From NCBI GenBank assembly GCA_965205425.1, contig CBDBGZ010000009.1:384001-448000 (forward strand): 64,000 nucleotides of DNA, given 5' to 3'. Shown here one piece after another: positions 19,720-63,714 of this stretch. The notes under the pieces were generated by a model. The model was not told the DNA's origin, searched no databases, and worked only from the letters and a program-made list of their open reading frames with translations. Position 1 is the first letter of the stretch. The number at the start of each line of letters is the position of its first letter. The translations under genes were made by a program, and so were the position numbers. Source of the stretch: Nitrosopumilus sp. Its GTDB lineage: Archaea > Thermoproteota > Nitrososphaeria > Nitrososphaerales > Nitrosopumilaceae.

Positions 19720-19956
19720 GTGTTAATTCCTGTTAGATGTTTAACTTGTGGAAAATTAATTGCAGATAAATTTGATGATTATCAAAATAAAATTAAAGCA
19801 GGAGAAGATCCTACAAAAACTCTTGATTCGTTAGGAGTTGAGAGATATTGTTGCAGAAGAATGCTTTTGACTACTGTTGAAACAATACAACAAGTAATCC
19901 CATTTTACGAAGCAATTCAGAGAAGAAAACAAGAAGTTCAATCTGAGTTAGAATAA
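19720..19956 (+). CDS. rpoN: RNA polymerase subunit N (Rpo10)
   Basis: IPVRCLTCG, RYCCRRM; likely GTG start 19720. Confidence 0.95.
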   Translation: MLIPVRCLTCGKLIADKFDDYQNKIKAGEDPTKTLDSLGVERYCCRRMLLTTVETIQQVIPFYEAIQRRKQEVQSELE

Positions 19957-42054: not shown

Positions 42055-43198
42055 TGAGACTTGGGCATAATTATTTACAAAAATAACTCTCAGTCATTTC
42101 CTAACAGCAAAGCATTCTCTTTACAGTTCTTGGATTTTCTGCTCCAATTATACAGTTGTAATATACTACAAGTTGATACACCAACACACAAACCAATACA
42201 AATGATTTCACGTTGTCAAATCCTTTCACATGTACAGTTCTAATGTTGAACGTATCTTTGAATATTTCAAATAAAGGTTCAATTGAGATTTTTCTTTGTG
42301 AGTACAACTCTTGACCTTGTACAGAATTATAAAAATCTGCAAGTTTGATTCGCTCTGGCGGTGTTGATGGATATATTTTGATAGGACAAATCAATCTCAA
42401 ATGTCTCTCATCACTAAACTGATATAATTTGGAATCATCATATGCTGGATCACATAAAATATTTTCAACCAGTCCTGCAAGTGGTTTGACTAACGTTTCA
42501 TACATTTTACCATCAGAAACATTTGCAGTTGAAACATCAGCAGACAATGGAACTATCAGTTTTCCAGTACTGCAACTCATGTGCAGTTTGTATCCAAATA
42601 TCCAACCCTTTGATTTTGAAAAACCCCATTTTGCATCAGTATCAATTCCTGGGATTGGTAGACGATTGTTCTTTATGTCTGATTTGTGCCATACTGGACC
42701 ATCTGCTTTTAGCATTGAACTATCCCCTGATGCTGAAACATTTTCCACCAATCCCTCTGAGATGAATTTGTTGCCCATGGTACTAATCATGTCACTAATG
42801 GGTAGAAATTGAAATCGTCTGTCAATAGTTCTTCTGTCTGGAATTTGAGTTAATTTGCAAACCTTGAGCAGTTTGTCATTGGAAGGTTTGATTGAAAGGA
42901 AATAATGAAATGTGTTGTTGCTTGGTATTCTCATCCACAACTTTATGATGAACAATTGCACCATCTGGATGGTTGGATACACGTATGGTCTACCCGATCT
43001 GAATACTTCCTCATACAAAGACAACATTCCCACCAAATGTAACACGCCAATAAGAAATGATTCCGATAGAATCTTGCCTAGGGATTTTCATTTGTTTTGA
43101 CATTCCAATGAACGAAACATGATAAGATCCTTAGCTTTTTCTATTTGAATAATTTGAGAATTGACTCAAAAATTAGAATTAGTTATGCCCATGTCTCA
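42055..43198 (-). mobile_element. IS element with DDE_Tnp_1-type transposase (IS5/IS982-like; ORF 42101-43045, probable 5' frameshift)
   Basis: TIR TGAGAC(T/A)TGGGCATAA at both ends; DSS, AKWG...GYKLH, DPAYD, RKISIE; no TSD seen. Confidence 0.85.
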
Positions 43199-43288
43199 AT
43201 TAAATAGTAATTTCTCATAATTATTGTACAAACTTTGGTGTTTGTCTGTTTGTCTTGTGGTATGCCTTTGTATATCATAATAAAACAG

Positions 43289-43325
43289 GTTCTAGGTTCT
43301 GAGGTTTCCGCAACCAACCTAGAAC
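43289..43325. other. Stem-loop with 10-bp perfect arms
   Basis: GTTCTAGGTT-N17-AACCTAGAAC followed by T-run. Confidence 0.6.
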
Positions 43326-43357
43326 ATTTTTATTAATTTTATAGTTTTACAAGTTCT

Positions 43358-43421
43358 GCAGAGATAGCCTAGCTTGGTTATGGCGTTTACCTCAGGAGTA
43401 AATGGTTGCGGAACTACGGAG
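43358..43421 (+). pseudogene. Truncated tRNA-Leu(CAG), 5' three quarters
   Basis: GCAGAGA-TA-GCC..TGG..GGC D arm, TTTAC-CTCAGGA-GTAAA anticodon arm, variable arm; T-loop replaced by IS630 sequence; TATA-like tttattaa ~25 bp upstream. Confidence 0.75.
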
Positions 43422-43717
43422 ATTGTTCTTGGCCTACCAACTTCTTGGGTGGTCGTAGAGGCCATCTATCTCAAAACGACTCACCCATTTTCTCACCCAG
43501 CTTGTGCAGTGGTGTAATGTCTTTGCAGTGCACTGTATGTCCTTTCCATCCTTTAGAATCCTCAACACTGCAAGCATCCTTACTGCAACCTTGGAGTTTT
43601 CTTTTTTGTATGCTGCTTCAAGTGATTCTAACTTGTTCATCAAATTTTACCATACATAGTGATCAAAAAGTTTTTTGTTTTGGAATAATTTAGTTCATGA
43701 ACTTTATCTTTTCGCTA
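43418..43717 (-). mobile_element. IS630-family partial copy (left end and transposase 5' part)
   Basis: Near-identical to 56007-56306; ends ...TCGCTA|TA. Confidence 0.9.
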
Positions 43718-44672
43718 TACCAGTATAATTGCAAGAACTGCTCTGATAGTTTCAAGACAGATGGAAATCTTCCACCATGTGGATGCTTTGATTCCTCTGC
43801 AATACGTGAGGTAGTCTCATTATTCTCAAAGAGAATGCCATACGATACCATTAGAGTAACTCTTCAAGAAAGATATGGATTGAAAATTAGTTGCACTACA
43901 GTACAATCTATTCTTCGCACTGGCAGTATTATGTTAGAACCATTGTACCATGACATTAGTAGTGAAATTGTGACTGAAAAGATTCTTGGAATGGATGAGA
44001 CAACATTTCCAATTGACGGAAAGACTGGATGGATGTGGGTTGCAAGAAGCAAAACAGAAGCTCATTACACTTTAGAGTACAGTAGAGGTGCTAAAATCCT
44101 AAAGAGATGTTGGAAGAAATTCTCAGGGATTTTAATATCTGATGGATATGCTCCATACAGAACGGTATTTTGTGATAATGTAAAACAGAGATGCACTGCA
44201 CATCTGCAGCGTGATGCAAAACATCTTGCAAGAAAATCAAATGATAAACAGGCTAAAACCATTTATGGAAAACTCTCAAAACTATTGCATCGTGCAAGAC
44301 GGTATAGCATACAAGAACATTCAGAGAAACAACGTAAAAGATATGCGTTGAATTTACTAAAACAAACAGATTCTATAATATGTCAATACATGTCAGGTGA
44401 TAAAGAAATGATTCAGTTTGGTACGAAACTAAAGACTGCAAGAAATAGTCTGGTTACATTTGTGAAATATCCCTGTATTCCATCAACTAACAATGATGCT
44501 GAGAATTCTATTCGAAAGTGCATCATGCAGAGAAATGTTCGCGGACAGATGAAAAGCAATCAGGGAATGAAGATGCTTTCTATATTTTTAACATGCTTTG
44601 AAACATGGAGGATAAGGGAATTGAATATGTTTTCTGAGATGGCAAAATACATCTAAAGTGCTTGATACATAC
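43718..44672 (+). mobile_element. IS66-family transposase (TnpC-like), 5'-truncated by IS630
   Basis: CKNC, DETT, WMWV, LISDGY, QRCTAHLQRD, TNNDAENSIR; stop at 44656, right end approximate. Confidence 0.85.
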
Positions 44673-44702
44673 AAATGAATATCCTATAAAATCTGTTATT
44701 TT

Positions 44703-44767
44703 GGTAATTCTGATATTACCTTAGTACAACTTTTGATCAGTTTGTATACAAAATAATCACTAAGGTA
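44703..44767. promoter_or_regulatory. Putative autoregulatory operator of the Panacea-PIN operon
   Basis: GGTAAT-N6-ATTACC and TACCTTAGT-N33-ACTAAGGTA inverted repeats abutting TATA-like tattatag. Confidence 0.45.
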
Positions 44768-44796
44768 TTATAGTATGTAATTTTCTATTTCTCTAC

Positions 44797-45645
44797 ATGC
44801 CAGAAGAAATTCCAGAGAGAATGTGGCTGCCATTATTAATTTTAGAAACTACTGGTGACTTACATTCGAAAACAAAATTCCAAAAAATTGCATTTCTGAC
44901 ACAATACGAATCAAAATTTGACGTATATGATTTCATTAAACATCATTATGGCCCATATTCTGATGGTCTTGATTTAGACACAGTATGTTATCCTTCATTG
45001 ATTACTCAAACTACTTCTCAATTGTATTATGCACCAAGTAGACATTACTATTCTTATTACATTACAGAACAAGGAAAAAATATTTTATCAGAATTAAAAC
45101 AAAAAATACAACCAGAAATCCTTCAAACAATGGTTGACAAAATTAAAGAAATTAATGAAAAACCATTATGCGAATTACTTGAAGAAGTTTATGAAAAATT
45201 TGCTCTAAAGAAAGATGATTCTATACAACTTGAATTACAAGTTAAAGAAGAATTAATGAAAGTAATGCATCCAATTAATCATAGCTATACAAAATTTGGA
45301 AATAGACAAACTACTTTTGTTTTAGGTATTTTAGAAGCCATTTACAAAATTCTGTCAAAATCCCAAACAGAAGATACCGTGCAAAAAGGAGTTATTTTTA
45401 ATTTATCAAAAGAAATTATTCAACGATGCAAAGATTTAGCAAAAGATGTTATTCCTCCTACCAATTCTGATTTCTTACGTCCACAATTTTTAGAAATACA
45501 TGATCTTTATAGCTATCTTATTCAATACTGTGAAAATAGAAATATCGTTCAAGATCCTATGTCACAACCATTAGATGAAATACTAAACGAGGATGAAGCA
45601 TTACGTCTGTCTCAAGCACTGGAAGCAATAGAACTTCTATCTTAA
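44797..45645 (+). CDS. Panacea (DUF4065/SocA/YwgA-like) antitoxin with extra C-terminal helical domain
   Basis: KTKFQKIAFL...F..HHYGPYS, Y-IT-QG, LLEEVYEKF. Confidence 0.75.
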   Translation: MPEEIPERMWLPLLILETTGDLHSKTKFQKIAFLTQYESKFDVYDFIKHHYGPYSDGLDLDTVCYPSLITQTTSQLYYAPSRHYYSYYITEQGKNILSELKQKIQPEILQTMVDKIKEINEKPLCELLEEVYEKFALKKDDSIQLELQVKEELMKVMHPINHSYTKFGNRQTTFVLGILEAIYKILSKSQTEDTVQKGVIFNLSKEIIQRCKDLAKDVIPPTNSDFLRPQFLEIHDLYSYLIQYCENRNIVQDPMSQPLDEILNEDEALRLSQALEAIELLS

Positions 45646-46226
45646 CTGTCCTTGATACAAACGCTTGTCTTTTCTATTCGATTAATCATAGCGTAACAAA
45701 ATCAGGAAGAAAAATTCCTATAAAATTAAAGAATTCTGAACCTGTAAATCACTATCTTACACCAAAAATTTCAGAGAATTCAATTTATGTCATAGAAACT
45801 GTTAATCGAGAAACTACAGGAAAAATTTGGGATGAACTATCAAAAATTGGTTCTAGTCTTTCATTTCAAGCATCAACAATCCACAAATTGGTTCAGTTAT
45901 CTTCTTCAAATTTTAACAAATTAACTCAAAATCAAATCCATCCTGATGATCTATCTCTTCTTTCTGATGTCAAAAACATGTATGCAACAATTTGGAGTGA
46001 CACTGGAAAAAATGAAAAAAAGAAAAAATGGGCACAAATAAAAAAAACTACCATAGATAAAGGTCCTCCAAGTGGACCTGATCTAGATATTTTAGCAACA
46101 ACTGCAAAATTGGCGCAAGATGAAATTGTAGAATTACTAACGTTTGACAATGATTTTATTTTATTTGCAGATGAAATATTGAGCGAATTTGGAATTTCCA
46201 TCAAAAATGGATGGTTACTAGAATGA
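45600..46226 (+). CDS. PIN-domain ribonuclease toxin, start codon non-canonical or unresolved
   Basis: Frame open from 45597: TVLDTNA...TVNRE...SGPDLDILAT...LLTFDNDF (PIN acidic tetrad); track shows only 45888-46226. Confidence 0.7.
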   Translation: MTSVSSTGSNRTSILTVLDTNACLFYSINHSVTKSGRKIPIKLKNSEPVNHYLTPKISENSIYVIETVNRETTGKIWDELSKIGSSLSFQASTIHKLVQLSSSNFNKLTQNQIHPDDLSLLSDVKNMYATIWSDTGKNEKKKKWAQIKKTTIDKGPPSGPDLDILATTAKLAQDEIVELLTFDNDFILFADEILSEFGISIKNGWLLE

Positions 46227-46293
46227 TCGATCAAATTTCCCTCCTAAAATAACTCTAAACTATCTGAATTCTCACTAAAGTTAAATTGAATAT

Positions 46294-46566
46294 TTATGAA
46301 TAATTTTCTACAAGATCTGAAAAATATTCTATAATATCATTCACTAATAACTCATATTCAGGATTAGAAGGACTGGATTGAACCATCATCTTGCCATTTT
46401 TGTAATATGTGATCATAATTTTACCATTTGGAGTATCAACTTCTAAAGCTTCTTGGGTGCCAGGTTGAATAGATCTGTTATTCAGTCTATGCCTTTCTTT
46501 TAGAAATCCTTTGAGATTATGAAATTCACTTTCTCTAACATTTGGACAAACATGATATGACTTCAA
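46294..46566 (-). CDS. Small protein, possible TBP-like fold (RNase HIII N-terminal/DUF3378-like)
   Basis: IMITYYKNGKMMVQ motif. Confidence 0.45.
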   Translation of the reverse strand: MKSYHVCPNVRESEFHNLKGFLKERHRLNNRSIQPGTQEALEVDTPNGKIMITYYKNGKMMVQSSPSNPEYELLVNDIIEYFSDLVENYS

Positions 46567-46634
46567 AATAGTGATGATATATTGTCTTGATTAGTTATTA
46601 ACATTTAACGAAACTTTGTAGATCGATATAGTTG

Positions 46635-46658
46635 TGGGACAAATTTAATCCCCAAAAA
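46635..46658 (+). repeat. Boundary motif B, copy 1
   Basis: TGGGAC-aaatttaat-CCCCAAAAA. Confidence 0.55.
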
Positions 46659-46709
46659 TGGTTCAAGCCTTTACGGATTCAGTCATAATCTTTTAAATTT
46701 AACAGAATA

Positions 46710-47789
46710 TTGTTTTATTTTGTGAAGTTTGTTATTTTTGCATTAATTCCATTAATCCTCTCAATAGGAATTGTTCCTGCTTTATCATCTGATTTTGTTC
46801 CAGAAGCTAATGCTGCAAAGTCCAAAGGGAATTCTCTGACTGAAATTGGTTCAAAAAAAGTTTGTGGGGATAGATTATGCTCAGAAATTTCTGGAACAAA
46901 AAATGTCTCTCCTTCAATGATCATAAAATCTGAAAAGAAATTGTTTGCATCTGCAATGGATTACACAATTGCAGGACCTGAAATAGATCCTGAAAAAGGA
47001 TATGCAGTAATTGAAATTGGTGATGGTCTTTACTGGCTAACTGATGGAATGTATCAATTAATGTTCTTAACAACAGGAGAAGGAGTAATCTTAGTTGATG
47101 CTCCTATGGGAATGGGAACAAAAATTCAGCAAGCCATATCTGATGTTACTTCTGAAAAAGTAACTCATTTCATTTACTCTCATATTCATAAAGATCATGT
47201 TGGCTCTGCAAGTTTACTTCCTGCTGATACAGTCTACATTTCCCATATTGATACTGCTGAACATTTGATGATGAAAAATGATCCTCAACGTCCAGTTCCA
47301 ACTGTAACTTTTCATGATGATTTTACTTTGGTGGTAGGTGATCAAATTTTGGAATTATCTTACTTGGGACCATTTCATTCAAAAGGTGATATTGTGATTT
47401 ATTCTCCTGCTCACAAAACTATCATGGCAGTTGATTTGTTTCATCCAAATGCAGCACCATTCCAATTCATGGGAATTACAAGAGATGTAGGTGAGCATAT
47501 TGCAGTTCATGACAAACTTTTAGAAATTGATTGGGATGTAATTGTATCTGGCCATGAACCAATTTTAGGAACTCCTGAACATCTAAAATTTAACAAAGAA
47601 TTCACCTTGGCAGTTTTAGATAATGCAATAATTGCAATGCAAACAACGCAGTCAAGTGCAGATTACTTTGGAGATTTGGCAAACAAATGTGCTGAATTAA
47701 CTGTTGAACAATATTCAGATCTAAAAGACATTGAAGTTTATCCTGTAGAAAACTGCATTACAATGGTTTTCTTTGCCATGATTGACTAA
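46710..47789 (+). CDS. Secreted MBL-fold metallo-hydrolase
   Basis: Signal peptide, KVCGDRLCSE motif, SHIHKDHVG, HSKGD, VSGH. Confidence 0.85.
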   Translation: MFYFVKFVIFALIPLILSIGIVPALSSDFVPEANAAKSKGNSLTEIGSKKVCGDRLCSEISGTKNVSPSMIIKSEKKLFASAMDYTIAGPEIDPEKGYAVIEIGDGLYWLTDGMYQLMFLTTGEGVILVDAPMGMGTKIQQAISDVTSEKVTHFIYSHIHKDHVGSASLLPADTVYISHIDTAEHLMMKNDPQRPVPTVTFHDDFTLVVGDQILELSYLGPFHSKGDIVIYSPAHKTIMAVDLFHPNAAPFQFMGITRDVGEHIAVHDKLLEIDWDVIVSGHEPILGTPEHLKFNKEFTLAVLDNAIIAMQTTQSSADYFGDLANKCAELTVEQYSDLKDIEVYPVENCITMVFFAMID

Positions 47790-47791
47790 GC

Positions 47792-47815
47792 TGCGTCCAT
47801 TTTTGACCCCAAAAA
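47792..47815 (+). repeat. Boundary motif B, copy 2
   Basis: TGCGTC-catttttga-CCCCAAAAA, 2 bp after stop codon. Confidence 0.65.
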
Positions 47816-47893
47816 CGATTTGAATCTATAATTATGAAATAATAGGCACGATTTGCTTTTTCATTATTAATATTTTCTATACAATTATCCGTA

Positions 47894-48935
47894 TATCTTT
47901 TCCGGAAATTATTTCACCCCTTAACTAGGAGAGCATCATTCCCATACTATCGTATGCGTGGGTATCGTGGCATACCTATGGTAAAGTTAGATGAGAATAA
48001 GATCAGGTGGATTATACAATCTAAAAATGAAAAAGTCAAGAATTTAGATATTTCAGTAATCCTCAAGATAACGCCTAGAAGAGTACAACAAGTCTACTCT
48101 CAGTACAAAAAAACCAAAAAGATTCCCACACTCAAAAGACCAGGGCGTCCAAAAAAGCCAGTCACTGTACACGAGATAGAGCTAGTCAAACAAGTTCAAG
48201 AAAAATTTCATACAAACGCACTATACCTTGAGAAAATCATATCAAAATTGTACAATACCAAGATAAACCACAATCGCATCCACAAGATTATGCTAGATGA
48301 AGGATTATCAGTTGAGCAACCACGGAAAAAGATGAGAAGAAAGTGGATCAGGTATGAACGTGAATATTCAAATTCACTGTGGCATACTGACTGGCACACA
48401 ATACATGATTCACGCTGGGCAGGAAAACAACTAATTGCATTTGAAGATGATGCCTCACGATTTATCACGGGTTTCGGAGTGTATGATGAGGCAACATCTG
48501 TGAATTCTTCTGAAGTACTATCTGATGCAATAAAGAATCACGGTAGACCAGCATCTGTACTATCTGATAATGGAAAACAGTTCACATCAAATGTCAATAC
48601 TCTTGATCATAACAAGCCAGTAGACTTTGAGCAGCAACTAATGAGACATCACGTAAAGCACTCTCGTACAAGAGTGAGACATCCACAAACAAATGGTAAG
48701 CTAGAAAAGTTCTGGGATATCTTTGAGTGTAAAATAGAATACTTTGAGTCAGTGGAGCAGTTTATGCATTGGTACAATCACATTAGAGTTCATGGCGCAC
48801 TAGACTTGGATAACATGGAGACACCATCTGATGCGTATCACTCCAAGATGATAACAAACGAAATACTCATAGACCCAAGCATTCTATGGAGGAATTACTC
48901 ATGAAAGTGACACGAAATAATTTCTGGAAAGAACA
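47894..48935 (+). mobile_element. IS481-family element, intact transposase 47954-48904
   Basis: 22-bp imperfect TIRs, 15-bp TSD ATACAATTATCCGTA (47879-93, 48936-50); WHTD, SDNGKQF, PQTNGKLE. Confidence 0.93.
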
Positions 48936-48965
48936 ATACAATTATCCGTAGTTCTTTATATTATA

Positions 48966-49484
48966 ATGACTAGAAATCACATAATGAAAAAGATACAATT
49001 TCTAAGTGTAGTTTTTTCTCTGATATTGTTTTCTGGAATTACAGCAGGTGCTACTGCGTTTGCTGAACCAGGTAAATACAATCATACTGAAAAACTCAAT
49101 GCTTATTGTGACATGTCAGCTGAAGAACAAGCAGAATTAATTGCTAAACACAACAAATCTGAAGACAAAGTTACCAAAATGAATGAGTACTGCTCTTTGG
49201 ATGATGAAGGACGTGCAGCATTTATTGACGAACACAAAAAAGCATACAAAAATCATGACAAGAAAATGCATAAAGAAATGAAAAAACATGCAAAGAACTT
49301 ATCTTCTGAAGATAGATCTGGATTAAAATCTGATCTTAAAGCACTAAAATCCGAATTTAGAGAACTTAAAGCACAGTTATCTGAAGATGGAACTCTAAGT
49401 GCAGAAGAAAAACGTGATCTAAGAATGCAATTTATTGAAAAAGCAAGAGCAATTCAGTTGTCTTGGATAACTCCACAAAATTAG
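48966..49484 (+). CDS. Secreted alpha-helical protein
   Basis: Signal peptide, duplicated YC-(M/L) helical units, coiled coil. Confidence 0.7.
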   Translation: MTRNHIMKKIQFLSVVFSLILFSGITAGATAFAEPGKYNHTEKLNAYCDMSAEEQAELIAKHNKSEDKVTKMNEYCSLDDEGRAAFIDEHKKAYKNHDKKMHKEMKKHAKNLSSEDRSGLKSDLKALKSEFRELKAQLSEDGTLSAEEKRDLRMQFIEKARAIQLSWITPQN

Positions 49485-49524
49485 ATTTTTTCTAATTTTT
49501 CTTTTTGTTTATTTTACATCTATC

Positions 49525-49548
49525 TGCATCTCAAATAATCCCCAAGAA
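49525..49548 (+). repeat. Boundary motif B, copy 3 (ISH3 target)
   Basis: TGCATC-tcaaataat-CCCCAAGAA. Confidence 0.55.
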
Positions 49549-50868
49549 CAGTAGATGGGAAAGTAACTCAATTTAGATCAAAAACTATCAATTATTCAAT
49601 CAATCTATTCAGATAGAAAAAGCTTGATGGAAGTATGTCACTCCATCAAATATGCATTGTACTTCATTTGATACCATGACACACCAAGGCGTGATACTAT
49701 CTAAAGCATTTGAGATTATCACTAAAATAATGTACAATATCTTGTTGTTTCCATGCTCTAGTAAAAATAACTCACGGTTCCATAATGCTGATGCACACAA
49801 TTCTGTCATGTCATTGTGTTTGGGAAATTCGTATGCAGAATCAGGATTAAAGAGACTGGCAATGGAATCCCAGAATCATTCTCCAACGGGTTTCATGGTT
49901 GAGAAAAATTATATCAAAAATATCACAAAAAACAATGCAAATTCAATTACATCGTTCACTGGATAGTACCATATCAAAATTACAAGAATTGGGAGTATTG
50001 GAGCAACCAGTTACTGTGGCAATTGACAAACATCTAATCCCAAGATATGACAAATTGCCAAACCATTCTTTAATAAAATCAAAATCTAAAAACAGTACTA
50101 CTCATTTTGAGAGTTACTGCACCATGCAGTGCGTTGAAAAAAGAATCAGGGCTCAACTAGGTTGTTATCCTTTGTATGACAACATATCAAATGCCGATTT
50201 TGTGCGTAAATTACTCTCTGATGGCATCAATAATGGAATCAAGATTAAACTATTGCTAGTGGATAGGGAGTTTTTCACAGCTGGAACAATTTCAGAAATA
50301 AAACAAAAGAATTTAAAATTTCTAATGCCTGCAAAAAAGAATTCTCGAATCAAAGATGCCATTTTACAATACGTTAATGGAGATAGAAAATCAATCTCGC
50401 CATACACGATAAAATCATCATCAGGACATGTAGAATCATTTACTCTAGTTATTCTGCCAAACAAAAATGCAAGAAAAAAATCAGATATTATTGATCAGTA
50501 TGTTGTGTTTGCAACAAACGTTTCACCAAAAGAAATATCATATAACATACAAAACATTCCAACTGATTACAAGAAACGTTGGGGGATTGAAACAGGCTAT
50601 GCATGTGTGGGAAGGTTCAGACCAAAAACCACCAGTTCAAACCAATCCATAAGATTGTTGTATTTTTACTATTCATTGATTTTGTACAATGCATGGATAA
50701 TTGCTAATTTGATTATCTCAGAAGAAACCAATGTAAAAAATTACAAACCAATAATATCAATTGAAATTCTCAAATATTTCTTTGTAAAGATAATTATTCA
50801 TTACTTTAGAAATAACAAAAATAATTATTTCCTAGAATGTGTAATTTGATGTACTTTCCCATCTACTG
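49549..50868 (+). mobile_element. ISH3-like (IS4 superfamily) element; transposase split by +1 frameshift near 49890
   Basis: Perfect 17-bp TIR CAGTAGATGGGAAAGTA, 7-bp TSD CCAAGAA; AIDKH, VDREF, YKKRWGIETGY. Confidence 0.92.
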
Positions 50869-50876
50869 CCAAGAAA

Positions 50877-50924
50877 GGTTCAAGCCTTAACAGAATTGAA
50901 CCAAATCTTAGAACACTTTATGAA
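50877..50924 (+). promoter_or_regulatory. Motif A (GGTTCAAGCC...TTGAACC) followed by BRE/TATA-like box
   Basis: Similar sequences at 46660 and 53250, each upstream of a secreted-protein gene. Confidence 0.6.
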
Positions 50925-51020
50925 CTTCCTATGAAAAATTAGAATTGTGAAGTTATTTTGATTTTTAACCTTTACGTATCATTGTCAAGGATGAGATATA
51001 TCAAATTCTTCAAAATTTAA

Positions 51021-53237
51021 TTGTTGAATGCATGGGCAATACTATTACTTGTAGTTGCATTGCTGATCCCAAGTAGCATATTTGCACAATCAGAATCAAA
51101 TGAAAAACAACAATTAATTTCAAAACTTGCCGATGATAGTGACATTTTGAATGTAATTCTAAAATTTGAATTATCACGGATTGACAAAATAAAATCATTC
51201 GATGATGTTGATTCTATATTGCATATTTTACAGGAAATTTCTTTTCTTGAAAATCTTGATGAATCAAAATATTTTCCTATACAACATGAGTGGGAAACAA
51301 CAAAACGTGATCTGAAAATACAAAGCAACATAACAGATTTGCTATCTTTTAAAGAAAAAATCCATCAAATTTACGATGCAGTATTTTTGATACAATTATC
51401 TGAAAATATCACTAAAAGAATATCTGACACAGAAAATTTACCACATTTAAAATCTATTTTGAAATCAAAATGGAATTCTGTTAAATCTGGTCTTGCAAAT
51501 GCAAAATCAACTGATGATGTACTAAAACACAAATTAGAAATTGGATACACAGAAAAAATTCTGGATTCAGGATTGAGACTGTATGATAAAACAAATTATT
51601 TAAAAGCAAATCAACTAATTGATCCAACTATTACCCATACTTGGTCTTTATTTCTAAACAGCATTAGTGAGTCTACATCAATTACTAGTGCACATTCTCA
51701 TCTCACAGAATATATAAAAAAATTCTCTGAAATTGAAAATAAACTAATTGCAAAATCTGAATCAGAATACAAAAAACACATTAAAAATTCACAAAACCTT
51801 GGATTATCTGAGCAAACAAAAGAAATCAATAAAATTCTTGACAGTTTACACATGGCCAAAAGCATAAAATCAAACAAAAATCCTTTTGATAATTCTAATG
51901 ATGAAATAATAAACCACATTCTCTACAAATCAGGAACAAAATTCTCTGAAATTGATTCTAAAATCAAGTATTATCATAGTGATGAATATCAAAAAAATCA
52001 AGATGAATTAAAGGAAAAATCACTTCAACTACAAAAAATAATTGATGACACTTATGATGAAATACCTGTATATCATGACATATTATACAAGATTGAAAAT
52101 CGTCTTTCTTACTCTAAAACACTTGATCCTATAGAACTAGAAAAAACTCAACATCTAACTAGTGCCTTGTTTTTTGAGCTAGAAAATCTATACAGAGAAT
52201 ACAAATTTGTAAAAAATTATTCCCCAATATACGAGTCTGATCAACTATCTGCAATTGATAAAAAAACCATTTATTTTGAATTACTAGATGATATTCTAAA
52301 AATATTAGATACGTATGATGATTCTCGTTTTGATCAATACCGTAAAGAATTTTATTTAATGATAGAGGATGCACAAAAATCAATTGAGATCGGCAGTTTC
52401 AAATTGGGGCATGAAAAAACATATGATGCTTTAAAATTTCTAAAAAACAATCTACTAGAGGATGATCCAAGAATAATTTTTAATGTGTCCTTTGACGATT
52501 CTCAAAATCTCTGGGACATTGATGGAGGAGTGTACAAACATTCATTTAATTCAAGAGGCAAAATGTCTTTTGTACTGTATGATGTTGATGGTAACAACAT
52601 TGGTGAGTTGGATTTTCTTAATACAAAACATGGTGAATTCAAAGTCTTATGGCACAAAGATGTATCTCCTGGGTTATACATTGCAAAGATAAGCCATGGC
52701 AATTCCCATGATTATCAGATAATAAGTATACAAAATGAACATGGAACAAAGTTTAGTCAAAAGGAAATTGAAATAATGAGTTTTGCATCGCAATATGAAA
52801 AACTAGAAAACTTTTTGCATGTATTTGGTGGTGATAATTACAAACAATATGATTCTAAATTTACATCAATAATCCAAACAATTCAGAGCAAGCTTAAAGA
52901 GGGAACAACCTCAGATGTTCAGAAAAACATAGACGAATTAAAAAAAGTCACTCAAAGGTATATCCCCATTCATTCCACTGATGCAATTATTGAGGCAGAT
53001 AATGTGCATGGCATGATTTCAATATCTGGCAAGGTTTCAAAATTAATTGATTTTCGAGAGGCACTGTTTATCTCTATATTTGATGAGAATGGAAAACGAA
53101 TTTATGAAAAAATAATTTATGATGACTCTAAGGGCAATTTTGAGTTTTTGTTGGTAAAGCCTGCTCAAAGCGGACTAGTAGTAGTACAATTAGAGTATCA
53201 TGATTTTGTTGCAACAGACATAATTTCAATTACATAG
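51021..53237 (+). CDS. Large secreted protein, helical N-terminal region and two Ig-like C-terminal domains
   Basis: 738-aa ORF with signal peptide; beta-rich segments near C-terminus. Confidence 0.75.
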   Translation: MLNAWAILLLVVALLIPSSIFAQSESNEKQQLISKLADDSDILNVILKFELSRIDKIKSFDDVDSILHILQEISFLENLDESKYFPIQHEWETTKRDLKIQSNITDLLSFKEKIHQIYDAVFLIQLSENITKRISDTENLPHLKSILKSKWNSVKSGLANAKSTDDVLKHKLEIGYTEKILDSGLRLYDKTNYLKANQLIDPTITHTWSLFLNSISESTSITSAHSHLTEYIKKFSEIENKLIAKSESEYKKHIKNSQNLGLSEQTKEINKILDSLHMAKSIKSNKNPFDNSNDEIINHILYKSGTKFSEIDSKIKYYHSDEYQKNQDELKEKSLQLQKIIDDTYDEIPVYHDILYKIENRLSYSKTLDPIELEKTQHLTSALFFELENLYREYKFVKNYSPIYESDQLSAIDKKTIYFELLDDILKILDTYDDSRFDQYRKEFYLMIEDAQKSIEIGSFKLGHEKTYDALKFLKNNLLEDDPRIIFNVSFDDSQNLWDIDGGVYKHSFNSRGKMSFVLYDVDGNNIGELDFLNTKHGEFKVLWHKDVSPGLYIAKISHGNSHDYQIISIQNEHGTKFSQKEIEIMSFASQYEKLENFLHVFGGDNYKQYDSKFTSIIQTIQSKLKEGTTSDVQKNIDELKKVTQRYIPIHSTDAIIEADNVHGMISISGKVSKLIDFREALFISIFDENGKRIYEKIIYDDSKGNFEFLLVKPAQSGLVVVQLEYHDFVATDIISIT

Positions 53238-53241
53238 TTTT

Positions 53242-53297
53242 CCAAGAAAGGTTCCAGCCTTTTTGGGATTGAACCTATGAGTAGAACGCTTTATGAA
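53242..53297 (+). promoter_or_regulatory. Motif A copy upstream of serpin gene
   Basis: CCAAGAAAGGTTCCAGCC...TTGAACC...TAGAACGCTTTATGAA. Confidence 0.6.
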
Positions 53298-53320
53298 GAT
53301 CTTGTCTGAACAAAAAGAAA

Positions 53321-54952
53321 ATGAACAAGATTTTTCCAATTTTATTAGTAGTTTTAATTTCAGGAACTCTTCTTGCAACCACTGTACATGCAGGAGGACC
53401 ATCTCTGAAGATGCAAAAAGAATGGGGATATGATTCTGATGAATTTGGTTGCTGGTATGAAGCTAGTGTATTAGTTGAAAGACCAAATGGTGATTTTGCC
53501 TGTGTTTATCCTCAAACTGCTGAGACATTAAATCTGCGTGGATGGATTATTCTAGTATCTAATATTGTGAATCCAGATGAACCCAAAATTTCAACTCTTT
53601 ACATTGACTCTAAACTTGTCGATTGTGTTGGTGTAGCTCCACAACAATGTATGTTAGTTAGAGAAAATTCTGATGATGAATGGGGGATGTTTTATGGAAA
53701 CATTGATGGATTTGAATATCAAGAAGGAACCGAATACAAAATTAATGTAGAAATTACTGAAATTGATAATCCACCAGCTGATGCTTCTTCTTTAAAATAT
53801 ACTTTAACAAATATTCTAAAATCTTCCAAAGTATTACCTTCTGTTGACATATCTCATACTGTAAATGCAAATAATCAATTTGCACTTGATTTCTATTCTG
53901 ATGTTTCTCAAGATGATGATGATAATGTTTTCTTCTCACCTTGGAGTATTTCTACAGCAGCAGCTATAGTCTATGAAGGAGCAAGAGAAAATACTGCTGA
54001 TCAAATGCAACAAGTATTTGATTTTTCATCGGATTCTTCAACTAGACAATTAGAGTTTCAATATGCTAACTATCTTCTAAATCAAATCAATTCTGAATAT
54101 CGACTAGATGTTGCAAATGGATTGTGGATTCAAGAAGGATTTAACCCACATCCAGAATATGTCGAAATTGCTAGTACATTTTATGACAGTAAAGTCGAAA
54201 CTGTTGATTTTGAAACTAACGGTGTAGATGTAATTAATGAATGGGTGTCTGAGAAAACTCAAGAAAAAATCACAGAATTATTTCCACCAGGACCAAGACC
54301 TGACACAAAACTAGGAATCACAAATGCCATTTACTTTAATGGAACATGGGTATATCCATTTGATGTTGAAAATACTCGAGATGCTCCATTTTGGATAACT
54401 CCTGATGAAAGTATCGATGTTCCAATGATGAATCTTGGAACAAAATATTTGAATTCTACATGGACAGAAGATTTGCAAATTGTACAGCTTCCGTACAAGG
54501 GAGACAAACTATCAATGCTAATTATTTTGCCTCATGAAAAAGATGGTTTGTCATCAATTGAAGAAAATCTTTCTGCAGAAACTCTTGATACTTGGCAAAA
54601 TTCCCTTTACAGCAGCAAAACTCATGTATCTATTCCAAAATTTGAATTAGAAACTGATTATGGATTAAATCCCATTTTGAAAAACCTTGGAATGGTTGAT
54701 GCCTTTGATCCAATTGCAGCAGATTTTTCTGGAATGTCTAATTCGCAATTATTTGTAAGCGAGGCAGTTCACAAAGCATTTGTCAATGTAAATGAAAAAG
54801 GAACCGAAGCTGCAGCAGCTACTGGATTCTGGATGACTTTAGAATCTGCACCTATGCCAATAATAGCTGATCATCCATTTCTATTTGTGATTCAAGATGA
54901 CACTACTGGAAATATTCTCTTTATCGGACGAGTCACAAATCCATCAGAATAA
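53321..54952 (+). CDS. Secreted serpin with N-terminal Cys motif and DUF4377-like domain
   Basis: [28 protein letters not shown] hinge, [20 protein letters not shown]...[10 protein letters not shown]. Confidence 0.93.
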
Positions 54953-54954
54953 TT

Positions 54955-54977
54955 TGCGTCTATTTTGAACCCCAAAA
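54955..54977 (+). repeat. Boundary motif B, copy 4
   Basis: TGCGTC-tattttgaa-CCCCAAAA, 2 bp after stop; half copy TACGCC-tattttgaa at 55006-55020. Confidence 0.65.
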
Positions 54978-54985
54978 CAGTAGGT

Positions 54986-55002
54986 GAATCCCCGTGGGCC
55001 CA
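54986..55002 (+). other. tRNA 3'-end-like fragment (att-site remnant)
   Basis: GAATCCCCGTGGGCCCA resembles T-loop 3' half, T stem and acceptor of archaeal tRNA-Ile-type genes. Confidence 0.45.
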
Positions 55003-55041
55003 TTTTACGCCTATTTTGAATGTGAACATGAAGAAAATAGT

Positions 55042-55221
55042 CTAAAAACTATCTAATCCAATAATAAATGCAATTAGAAATCCTGCAACTGTAGCTAATG
55101 AAATATGATATCCTCCACTTTCATATGCTTCAGGCATCATAGTTTCTGCAAGCATATCTAGTATTGCTCCACCAGCAATACCTAATGTTATTGCGATTAC
55201 TTCAGGACCAAGTTGAGCTAT
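55042..55221 (-). pseudogene. C-terminal fragment of ZIP/ZupT-like transporter
   Basis: GIAGGAILDMLAETMMPEAY...VAGFLIAF; truncated at IS630 end. Confidence 0.75.
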
Positions 55222-55223
55222 TA

Positions 55224-56306
55224 TAGCGACGATCAAAAGTTCGCAAACATCTTTGCAGGATTTCTAAAGATATAATTTGCAACATCAAGCTTGAATTTTG
55301 TCACTCTGAAATATTTTGACACTGCCTTGTTCATTATTGTAAACATTGCATAATACTCTGAAACCAACAATGCATATTTGCTTATCTTCCAGCACTGCTC
55401 TATCATGTTCAAGTATGGTGATCCCTTTGGCAACCAGATTAGTTTGACATCTCTATTGTTTGCAAGGTATTCCTTTACCTTCTTTGATTTGTGAACTGAT
55501 GCTCTATCCAGCATGATTGCAATTTTGCCGTATTTCCAGTGTAACTCTTTTAGATATTCTACAAATGTTACAGCATTGAATTTGTCATAAACTCTAAACA
55601 GTTGATTGCCATTTTCTGTAATTGTACCATACACTGCCAGACTCTCATGTCGTCCTGTATATGGAAGAAATATTCTCTTGGCAACTGGTGACCAGTACTT
55701 TTTTCCTGTTTTTGTATCCCTTACAAAGAATGCTTCATCAGCCATTGCAATGACAAATCCTTTCTTTTTTAGGCGTGAAATTCTCTTTTTGATGCGTTGT
55801 TGCCAGCTTCTCACAGCAGATATACTTGCATGGTTGATGTGATATTTTTGTGCAGTTTTTGCAGACATGCCGTATTGGTGCATTATCTTTCTGATGTGGG
55901 TTATGTGAAATTTTACTCCAGTGGAATAAAAGATACTTTGTTGCAACATTATGGGGGTAAACAAAGTTAGCATTGCTTTTGACATGATAGCATCCATTCG
56001 AGTCTGGGAGATTGTTCTTGGCCTGCCACTTCTTGGGTGGTCGTAGAGGCCATCTATCTCAAAACGACTCGTCCATTTTCTCACCCAGCTTGTGCAGTGG
56101 TGTAATGTCTTTGCAGTGCACTGTATGTCCTTTCCATCCTTTAGAATCATCAACACTGCAAGCATCCTTACTGCAACCTTGGAGTTTTCTTTTTTGTATG
56201 CTGCTTTCAAGTGATTCTAACTTGTTCATCAAATTTTACCATACATAGTGATCAAAAAGTTTTTTGTTTTGGAATAATTTAGTTCACGAACTTTATCTTT
56301 TCGCTA
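55224..56306 (-). mobile_element. IS630-family element, full length (transposase 55233-56210, +1 frameshift near start)
   Basis: TA-flanked imperfect TIRs TAGCGA...AAAGTTCG; ADEA, LDRASVH, SPYLNMIE. Confidence 0.92.
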
Positions 56307-56584
56307 TAAAAGACAGCTTTTTGAACTTATTTTGTTTTTGTATGTATTTAGCAAGTATTGTTGATTTTTCTCAAAAATGGACTCAGTTGATATGATTTGC
56401 CCTTCTTGAATTTCATAGAATATTTTTTTAGTTTATCTGGTATGGTTTTATCCATTATTTTTGACATTACGATGTAATCAAATGCAGGTTTTACCATGAG
56501 ATACAATGTTTATTATAGTAAATAAATAACGTGAAAAATACTTATCAAAAGACCATTTAATGGAAAAATATAGTATTTAACAAG

Positions 56585-57706
56585 ATGGATGATTTTTCTC
56601 AGGAAGATGTTACAAAATGTGTAAATTCAATATTCAAAGTAACAGAGTTTACAAAAACAGAATACACATTAGAATACAAAATATCAGATAAGGAATTTAA
56701 ATCAAAATTTGAAGATTTGGCGAGAAGATTAGAAGATGAGAACTATATCTGCAAAATTGAAGAAATTGAAGGTGAATTAATTGTGATGATCCAAAAGTTT
56801 ACACAGAAAAAAAGATGGTGGTTAAATTCAACTTGGACACCTAGAATCTTGTTTGCAATAGTAATTGGTTTTGTCATGTTCGATGGATATGGTAGAACTG
56901 TGGATCTTAACAATATCATGAATTTAGGTAAACCCTTGGAAATGGCGATGATTTACACTATTTCGTTAATGGGGATTTTAGGAATACATGAACTTGGTCA
57001 CATGATTGCGGTTAAAAAACACAGATTAAAAACAACATGGCCATTTTTTATTCCAGGAATACCAACAATTACAATATTTCCAACATTTGGAGCGTTTATT
57101 CAATCACGAGGATTAACAATTAATCGACAAATTTTGTTTGATATTGCAATTGCAGGTCCAATTGCAGGATTAATTATTACAATTATTGTTGCACTGTATG
57201 GAGCATATTCTGCACCGCTTCTAGAATTAGAAACAATAGAAAGACTCTATGATGAAGGAGTAGTATCAGATTTTCCATTTGGAGAGCCATTACTTTTGAA
57301 AGGAGCATTTGCATTGTTTGGTAAAGGAGATGTTGGAAATCAGGTAATAATAACTCCTGTTTTGTGGGCATCATGGATTGGATTTTTTATTACATTTTTG
57401 AATTTAATGCCAGCATGGCAATTAGACGGAGGTCACATGGCAAGAACAGTATTTGGTCCTAGATGGCACAAGTATACCACATATGCTAGTTTTATTGTTT
57501 TGGCAGTTATAGGATTTGAATTTGCTGCATTAATTTTTTATTTTTTGAGTAGACGAAATTTTAGTGCATTTCCTTTAGACGATATTTCACCATTATCAAA
57601 GAATAGAAAATTTGCATACGTTGGAATTATTCTATTAGCAATATTGTGTATACCCATACCAGAAAATATCTGCGTTCCAATATTGAGAACTATATGTATT
57701 TTTTAA
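56585..57706 (+). CDS. Site-2 protease (M50 family)
   Basis: HELGH, AGP, NLMPAWQLDGGH. Confidence 0.93.
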   Translation: MDDFSQEDVTKCVNSIFKVTEFTKTEYTLEYKISDKEFKSKFEDLARRLEDENYICKIEEIEGELIVMIQKFTQKKRWWLNSTWTPRILFAIVIGFVMFDGYGRTVDLNNIMNLGKPLEMAMIYTISLMGILGIHELGHMIAVKKHRLKTTWPFFIPGIPTITIFPTFGAFIQSRGLTINRQILFDIAIAGPIAGLIITIIVALYGAYSAPLLELETIERLYDEGVVSDFPFGEPLLLKGAFALFGKGDVGNQVIITPVLWASWIGFFITFLNLMPAWQLDGGHMARTVFGPRWHKYTTYASFIVLAVIGFEFAALIFYFLSRRNFSAFPLDDISPLSKNRKFAYVGIILLAILCIPIPENICVPILRTICIF

Positions 57707-63570: not shown

Positions 63571-63714
63571 TTAGAATCAAATCATTATGTCAAGATGGGA
63601 TTCATAAAGGATTCTACTATAGAGTTCAATTTCATATTTTTAGTATTGAAAATGGGCCCGAAGGGCATCAAAGTATCTTGTACATTATCAAAGTCCCATA
63701 CATATCCTCAAAAA

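Follow-up and report, generated by a model that had tools for sequence, protein, structure and literature searches.

Gene units that gather at a fixed place in a chromosome have been described in several systems, summarized here from the accessible portions of the sources cited. In integrons and in clusters of attC sites lacking integron integrases (CALINs), archaeal ones included, short and mostly co-oriented genes lie between recombination sites, often with no integrase nearby and with one proximal insertion site (10.1101/2022.02.06.479319). Tandem accretion is known from streptococcal integrative and conjugative or mobilizable elements (ICEs and IMEs), where cis-mobilizable elements (CIMEs), i.e., att-ended units without integration genes, are displaced by newcomers where the target gene ends (PMC5704250), and has also been invoked for the ssrA islands of Dehalococcoides (PMC3146451). 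The additive flexible genomic islands of Alteromonas are tRNA-anchored hotspots with cassettes variable in number and order, some with a partial tRNA repeat, and near-identical cassettes across species (PMC4898812). In thaumarchaea, integrase-bearing cryptic integrated elements have, at tRNA 3' ends, att repeats that are short (median 17 bp), and tyrosine-recombinase elements form arrays at re-used sites, while integrons are given as one of the classes undetected there (Krupovic et al. 2019, PMC6563490); for the islands of ammonia-oxidising archaea, the available part of a further account gives only short tRNA-Glu/Gly matches in one island (10.1101/2024.04.23.590705). The stretch analysed here (the window) is 64,000 nucleotides long and corresponds to positions 384001-448000 of contig C9 of a Nitrosopumilus genome (G000, 2.2 Mb in 9 contigs). 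The family Nitrosopumilaceae comprises abundant marine nitrifiers with streamlined genomes. Between positions 46635 and 55020 the window holds genes for a metallo-beta-lactamase-fold (MBL) hydrolase, a 172-aa protein, a 738-aa protein and a serpin, separated by a short motif (motif M), an arrangement that had been taken for an integron-like array when the letters of the window alone were inspected (the sequence-only reading). The region is probably a decayed row of small integrase-less gene units whose att-type ends match those of tRNA-targeting tyrosine-integrase elements of the Nitrosopumilaceae, likely built by repeated insertion at the 3' end of tRNA-Val(TAC) by an integrase acting in trans. 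Below, family genomes are labelled G, loci L, read runs X and the window junctions J1-J5.

Motif, site and cognate integrase

An exact search for motif M in the G000 genome returns the four same-orientation copies picked out in the sequence-only reading, all on the + strand, at window positions 46635, 47792, 49525 and 54955, two of them beginning 2 bp past a stop codon, as had also been observed; the whole 2.2-Mb genome holds no further exact copy. A scan of G000 with one mismatch gave 5 matches against a shuffle mean of 0.83, a count reached in 1 of 100 shuffles, the pattern having been fitted to these very copies. Recovery by models built from other genomes is an independent and stronger test than the fitted pattern. 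Site models whose training left out G000 and G177 find each of the five window junctions, namely the site at 54955 (E 6e-13), that at 47792 (hidden Markov model, HMM, E 6e-6) and, with the model of the class-2 sites described below, those at 46648, 50865 and 53238 (40.5, 30.7 and 30.9 bits, respectively), a shuffled genome giving 2 matches of at least 15 bits. The partial copy noticed at 55006 is real as well, and 55006-55020 is read as a decayed second motif M. Rfam gave no match within 44000-57000. The four motifs are real, and motif M is the outer part of a site, not its crossover core.

In the site, motif M is separated by 4-5 nt from a left arm of 10 nt, which is followed by an overlap of 6 nt and a right arm; the arms form the dyad GRRYC-N6-GRYY, which is perfect in 66 of 161 sites and has at most one mismatch in 90 of 161 (0.23% and 3.1%, respectively, at random places). 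Inverted arms around an overlap of 6-8 bp, as in tyrosine-recombinase cores, are found in this dyad beside motif M and not around the 7-nt spacer of the motif itself. The overlaps fall into two classes, the tRNA-type CCCGTG and an AT-rich class 2; in 24 of the 90 dyad sites the overlap is strongly unlike the tRNA type, with the arms retained. The crossover dyad, with its 6-nt overlap, derives from the tRNA-Val 3' end. A second perfect dyad lies 40-52 nt downstream in 13 of 110 tRNA-type cores (null 0.86%), mostly with an AT-rich overlap, and a weaker dyad, seen by eye, ends within the first half of motif M, 40 nt upstream of the core. Because of these extra dyads on either side of the core, the site may be regarded as a crossover dyad flanked by accessory dyads, to which the integrase would bind.

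The pattern is widespread in the family, with 772 matches at up to 3 mismatches in 262 of 401 genomes, where a backwards control rarely gave more than one per genome; in 15 genomes chosen for high counts, 143 matches stand against 6 for the control. Twelve of these 15 have a long contig and a located tRNA-Val, and there 31 of 104 matches, 30 of them co-oriented, lie within 30 kb behind tRNA-Val, with 1.6 expected (our own count). Among 75 tRNA-Val regions, nine, or ten counting G388, have at least three forward sites and no integrase match; six of the ten were chosen for their site counts and four come from a set of 60 regions taken without selection, in many of which no site is present. Of at least 123 metagenome stretches, 77 loci are listed, 26 of them with two or more co-oriented sites; of these multi-site loci none holds the integrase, five hold a tRNA, and many are short. 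In L355 five sites follow one another, with a single gene in each interval. Terminal repeats suggestive of a circle were seen in none of the 77, which does not show that circles are absent.

A weight matrix made from the four window copies also matches, reversed, the flank of tRNA-Val(TAC) in G000. This tRNA gene (C9:1153149-1153225) is followed by a reversed motif M and then by a frameshifted tyrosine-integrase gene in two pieces, and the tRNA-Lys(CTT) gene of the same genome by a reversed motif M and a broken relative of this integrase. An assembly error behind the frameshift was ruled out, since in the read runs X1, X2 and X4 it lies within a contig free of differences and gaps. The N-terminal piece has homologs, patchily distributed, in 80 of 401 family genomes (E<=1e-30), and close members begin 15-20 nt past the reversed motif M, behind tRNA-Val, -Lys or -Arg. 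Elements in relatives run from the tRNA through core, reversed M, integrase, cargo and M to a second core. An element of the same family, with the same outer motif and a different core, occurs in G122 (L035-L036, around position 19771 of the joined region) at an intron-containing tRNA-Val(CAC).

The integrase (about 395 aa) begins at the core-binding region and has no arm-binding domain; the catalytic R, H-x-x-R and H are conserved and, with a Tyr in the expected region, stand in the expected order, and a C-terminal extension may be read as a coiled coil. Three members match the archaeal XerA model weakly (31.7-40.2 bits, cut-off 220) and no other NCBIfam model, those of integron integrases included, at E<=0.01; the nearest solved structures are XerA and XerH. 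With a score far under the cut-off and a gene that is patchy and tRNA-linked, the enzyme does not belong to the XerA equivalog of XerA/dif and pdif modules. The sequence-only reading had suggested looking for the motif near tyrosine integrases, and it is with this one definable family that the layout of reversed motif and integrase occurs: none of 33 loci of other tyrosine recombinases has it, one of them having a site past the 3' end of its gene. The seven Pfam-detected tyrosine recombinases of G000 were rejected as cognate enzyme, none having motif M alongside in the family layout. A viral origin was likewise rejected, neither the integrase nor the exact motif M pattern being found in viral contigs. 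The system is anchored at tRNA genes and served by a definable integrase family.

Breakpoints and order of the units

In the filled/empty pairs G201/G170, G388/G244 and G388/G207, homology resumes exactly at the tRNA-derived core AATC-CCCGTG, as it does at the tandem junctions in L027 and L030, and such pairs break 33-36 nt past the start of motif M. Breaks of synteny coincide with the whole site, as had been anticipated from the letters alone, and their position at the adjacent tRNA-derived core removes the crossover from the 7-nt spacer of the motif, where it had been placed. A nested series of units (C, B+C, A+B+C) across G207, G244 and G388 has the newer units adjoining the tRNA and the older ones behind, with no integrase match in the added units. 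Between genomes, the left end of the MBL unit is conserved on the unit side and differs in the overlap and in all sequence leftward of it. On the sequence evidence, autonomous elements and integrase-less units are shown to share their ends, to break at the tRNA core, to be added proximally and to stand in changed order.

Movement of units between genomes is apparent as well. Behind tRNA-Val in several relatives, the same integrase-less units of one to three genes stand in different order, and in the tRNA-Val row of G333 homologs of the MBL and 172-aa genes of the window form separate site-bounded units, a further unit lying between the two. One unit is 93.8% identical in G269 and G013, which belong to different species with a core about 80% identical, and occupies different row positions. 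The gene families that adjoin a site in at least two genomes number 13, compared with a permutation mean of 7.0, a value reached in 1 of 1000 permutations (kinship ignored). Motif M stands past the MBL stop codon in 6 of 10 close homologs from other genomes, 4 of them at exactly 2 bp, and in 1 of 18 distant ones; 2 of 12 distant homologs of the 172-aa gene and one serpin of 50% identity in a metagenome locus are followed by it as well. It was found behind none of 29 conserved paralogs of the 738-aa gene and none of 28 distant serpins.

According to the mechanism that we propose, an integrase acting in trans would insert units one behind another at the tRNA-Val(TAC) 3' end, and units would leave as small circles, by excision at the 6-nt overlap CCCGTG, and enter again at the tRNA. 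Motif M and the class-2 dyads about 40-50 nt to either side would provide extra binding sites for an integrase devoid of an arm-binding domain. At least some units may have arisen by deletion from integrase-bearing elements: one unit (G244/G388) retains, by eye, apparent first integrase codons at the expected position, and L027 has a truncated integrase in its first unit. Many unit left ends have neither a reversed motif M nor a trace of integrase, and both att ends are retained in G388, G333 and L355. The activity of insertion sequences (ISs) would have moved the window row away from tRNA-Val.

The row in the window

The features of the row are as follows (window positions, strand).

46635-46685, +: junction J1, with motif M (46635-46655), a 4-nt linker, a T-loop-like left arm (46660-46669), the class-2 overlap TTTACG (46670-46675) and a right arm (46676-46685); class-2 model 40.5 bits
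46710-47789, +: cargo of unit 1, metallo-beta-lactamase-fold hydrolase (PF00753), 359 aa, hydrophobic N-terminus
47792-47826, +: junction J2, motif M directly followed by right-arm-type sequence (HMM E 6e-6), compared with the right ends of MBL homologs
47894-48935, +: IS with rve-domain transposase (PF00665; gene 47954-48904), many genomic copies
48966-49484, +: cargo of unit 2, helical protein, 172 aa, hydrophobic N-terminus
49525-50902, +: junction J3, split by an IS, with motif M (49525-49545), left arm (50877-50886), class-2 overlap TTAACA (50887-50892) and right arm (50893-50902)
49549-50868: IS within J3, DDE_Tnp_1 transposase (49899-50849), 7-bp target duplication CCAAGAA
50909-50923, +: promoter-like motif, recurring at unit left ends, mostly 30-45 nt ahead of a start codon
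51021-53237, +: cargo of unit 3, 738-aa protein, hydrophobic N-terminus; no motif M past the stop
53242-53296, +: junction J4, with truncated motif M CCAAGAAA, left arm (53250-53259), class-2 overlap TTTTTG (53260-53265), right arm (53266-53275) and promoter-like motif (53282-53296); class-2 model 30.9 bits
53321-54952, +: cargo of unit 4, serpin with DUF4377 domain (PF00079, PF14302), 543 aa, hydrophobic N-terminus
54955-55020, +: junction J5, with motif M (54955-54975), a 5-nt linker, left arm (54981-54990), overlap CCCGTG (54991-54996), right arm and decayed second M (55006-55020); E 6e-13
55030-56308, -: 3' fragment of a ZIP-type transporter gene (label based on the translated sequence), interrupted by an IS630-type element (about 55222-56308, PF13358) that ends the row

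J5 is the sole intact attR-like site of the window and the only junction retaining the tRNA-type core, with 17 nt (54987-55003) identical to the tRNA-Val(TAC) 3' end; the other four lack this core. J1, which was aligned with the left ends of MBL homologs and is the left end of the MBL unit, retains, like J3 and J4, the class-2 dyad only, and the tRNA-type core expected about 40 nt upstream of it is at best decayed. J2 is collapsed, without left arm, overlap or dyad. The boundary ahead of the serpin (J4) had been thought to keep only CCAAGAA; in fact a full dyad (53250-53275) and a promoter-like motif are retained there. Two of the window units bear IS insertions, and the row is detached from tRNA-Val. 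Pfam detected no transfer genes in the window, and the cognate integrase had no match in the window or in the integrase-less rows. The window row is decayed and probably inactive, or frozen, because its integrase is frameshifted, four of the five junctions lack the tRNA-type core and ISs have moved the row from tRNA-Val.

As for the cargo, the MBL protein scores far under every beta-lactamase cut-off of NCBIfam, and the 738-aa protein is distantly related, as a short paralog with about 26% identity, to a conserved protein of about 990 aa. For the latter, which occurs in about half of the genomes of the genus that were searched, no Pfam match was found. The genes between the motifs had been described as all secreted, which agrees with the hydrophobic N-termini of the four cargo proteins and not with the two transposases (47954-48904 and 49899-50849), which are IS-borne. 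The notion of surface-protein cassettes holds in so far as cargo is enriched for exported proteins (hydrophobic N-terminus in 43 of 92 cargo proteins versus 422 of 1717 comparison proteins), other proteins being carried too. The rve-domain IS (47894-48935), which we take to be IS481-like, is inserted upstream of the unit 2 gene between copies of a 15-bp target duplication (47879-47893 and 48936-48950). The genome is rich in ISs, 394 of 2931 called open reading frames having at least 5 near-identical copies; an IS target-site motif as the full explanation of the sites was rejected, as J3 holds one IS but many genomes have sites without any. The promoter-like motif (50909-50923) may be BRE/TATA-like (B recognition element and TATA box); the idea that the motif past J3 and J4 is a reversed M was dropped because it recurs ahead of start codons without a site.

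On the left the row is bordered by two more IS transposases, DDE_Tnp_1 and IS66 (42101-44656). A toxin-antitoxin-like gene pair is found at 44797-46226, with weak matches to DUF4364 and DarG and a partner without Pfam hit. An IS-riddled island that belongs to the tRNA at C9:457838-457911 has at its far end, on the minus strand, a 3' fragment of tRNA-Met(CAT) (about 63600-63680, C9 about 447,660), followed by the same right-arm type and a promoter-like motif ahead of a histidine-kinase-like gene. More sites of the same family, some with tRNA-Val fragments, lie elsewhere in G000 (C5:7039, 10115, 14870 and 230500; C8:70497; C7:108714; C9:123866, 638556, 1093304 and 1099965).

Further MBL and serpin copies are present in G000 on contigs C5 and C4. 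The assembly has 5.2% contamination, duplicated tRNAs and a divergent tRNA-Val locus in the same runs, and these second copies may come from a second population; they are for this reason not counted as within-genome moves. In X1, X2 and X5 a second tRNA-Val allele was found (L008:12120-12180), followed by a reversed motif and non-integrase sequence, and the upstream core genes also occur as a divergent copy, which indicates two populations in the samples. Among contigs C4, C5, C6, C8 and C9 several tRNA genes are duplicated, the two copies lying on different contigs, and short, odd tRNA-like genes are found repeatedly.

Alternative readings and relation to known systems

Several observations weigh against a row built by site-specific insertion at tRNA-Val. 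At the right ends of homologous units, excess identity stops at the start of motif M, within which identity is 0.73 within and 0.74 between families (15 pairs); since homology fades there and not at the overlap, these data do not fix the right crossover point. Of the 104 matches counted above, 73 lie away from tRNA-Val, and a few of the 13 site-adjoining families are probably chance matches beside core genes. Motif M is missing at the homolog closest to the 172-aa gene (G291) and at every homolog of the 738-aa gene. In four genomes, G201 (L159), G405 (L158), G142 (L161) and G403 (L163), the MBL unit stands alone between core genes that are adjacent in G000, each time in a different intergenic region; in G201, the case compared closely, both outer arms are inside the insert and relatives have no core at the empty place, so that simple insertion at a local site does not explain it. 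This place is an AT-rich hotspot, where G365, G254 and G361 have another insert of 1.3 kb. In G177, another species whose adjoining core genes are 82-86% identical, a block reaching from the toxin-antitoxin-like pair to a little beyond J2 has a copy of 99.7% identity, bounded there by ISs and not by motif M and lying inverted, 1.3 kb from tRNA-Val; this transfer, the only recent one seen, looks IS-made, yet ties the row to the tRNA-Val locus. Assembled contigs of X1, X2, X4 and X5, which drop rare forms, contained no excision joint at any site. Finally, the array-rich genomes G269, G142, G207, G333 and G386 have no close integrase homolog (E<=1e-30; a count of 0 for the first three, no entry among the matches for the other two), and in these the enzyme must therefore visit or the rows are frozen.

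Part of this evidence, namely the IS-bounded G177 transfer and the array-rich genomes without close integrase, together with the collapsed window junctions and the integrase remnants in G244/G388 and L027, would fit passive relics, i.e., once-autonomous islands with their own integrase that have shrunk and are now spread by ISs or homologous recombination rather than site-specifically. We consider this unlikely, given that stop codons abut the site at fixed distances (among 83, 2 bp in seven and 14 bp in five), which random deletion would not yield, that one-gene units carry identical ends into different row positions, and that dyad arms persist where the overlap has changed. Less probable still is a regulatory role, in which motif M or the class-2 dyad would be a transcription-factor operator, a promoter element or a terminator of an exported-protein regulon. 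The T-richness of motif M just past stop codons, the promoter-like motif behind several class-2 dyads and the two ends retained by lone MBL inserts could be accommodated by such a role; the absence of motif M behind conserved paralogs, its fixed spacing to tRNA 3' fragments, its reversal between tRNA and integrase, its coincidence with synteny breaks and the 55 of 138 copies that follow genes on the opposite strand speak against it. The least credible of the three, by a little, is that motif M is itself the core of an unrelated recombinase, with crossover in the 7-nt spacer: the fading of homology within the motif, about 10 nt into it for the MBL copies, speaks for this, but the filled/empty pairs break well beyond it, at the tRNA core, the halves of the motif are poor inverted repeats beside a good adjacent dyad, and a cognate integrase family has been identified.

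Insertion of units at tRNA-Val by an integrase acting in trans is thus retained as the reading of the window row. A much bolder generalization, which we offer tentatively and would ourselves rather doubt, is that marine ammonia-oxidising archaea run a tRNA-based analogue of integrons, in which one-gene cassettes with standard ends and their own promoter would be made, exchanged family-wide and inserted beside tRNA-Val by a visiting XerA-like integrase, whose three-dyad site would tolerate changed overlaps, so that non-tRNA sites would be reached too. The value of the findings lies in the family-wide system, of which the window is a decayed example: the end motif, present in about two thirds of the sampled genomes, offers a means to delimit accessory-gene units and to test their exchange, and an integrase without arm-binding domain whose site, of about 80 bp, lies at a conserved tRNA might serve as an integration tool in these archaea.

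With respect to integrons, the proposal of a non-attC, integron-like row of gene units with tyrosine-recombinase sites and a recombinase encoded elsewhere proved right in kind, the units being shuffled between genomes. The ends of attC sites have the consensus RYYYAAC/GTTRRRY. Such ends were not seen at the sites studied here, and attC-like folding was no better than in shuffles for either strand of J1 and of J5 (z -0.04 to 0.58), at J4 on the top strand (z -1.42) and in a full attP-like site (z 0.19 and -1.63). The system works like an integron or CALIN, with rows of short units and co-oriented sites whose order varies between genomes and with entry, by comparison of the nested series and filled/empty pairs, at one proximal site, but shows neither an IntI match nor attC hairpins; the entry site is a tRNA end, not attI. 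Unlike the integrons and CALINs described in the part of the account available (10.1101/2022.02.06.479319), the rows have no attC hairpin and no IntI match, use a tRNA gene as platform and have sites resembling double-stranded phage-type att. The cryptic integrated elements of thaumarchaea are matched by the parent elements, which carry an integrase and a short direct repeat at a tRNA 3' end (G201 versus the empty G170), and not by the window units, which have no integrase; the accessible portion of that survey deals with elements of at least 2.6 kb and reports no arm motif or integrase-less rows (PMC6563490). In the literature covered, from which subscription papers are mostly absent, neither this motif nor rows of this kind were found described for these archaea, and the available parts of two tyrosine-recombinase reviews do not mention this type of site (PMC8138268, PMC8371274).

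Closest are the bacterial cases of accretion. As in CIMEs, the units have no integrase (in the rows and the window) and no transfer genes (in the window, by Pfam), and newcomers adjoin the target gene; compared with the streptococcal elements as far as described in the source (PMC5704250), they are mostly of 1-3 genes, with stop codons abutting the site, the same units reordered across an archaeal family, no conjugation module seen and extra dyads 40-50 nt from the core. With the Alteromonas islands they share the tRNA anchor, the variable cassettes and the near-identity of units across species, but there the cassettes, such as metal-resistance clusters, have no defined arm or cognate integrase in the portion of the account available (PMC4898812), whereas here a conserved end of about 50 nt goes together with an integrase family. 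Integron-like gene collecting appears to recur across the Nitrosopumilaceae, and the system is best regarded as a compact variant of the tandem accretion of integrase-less islands, i.e., of CIMEs and additive islands, the general mechanism of which is already known from bacteria.

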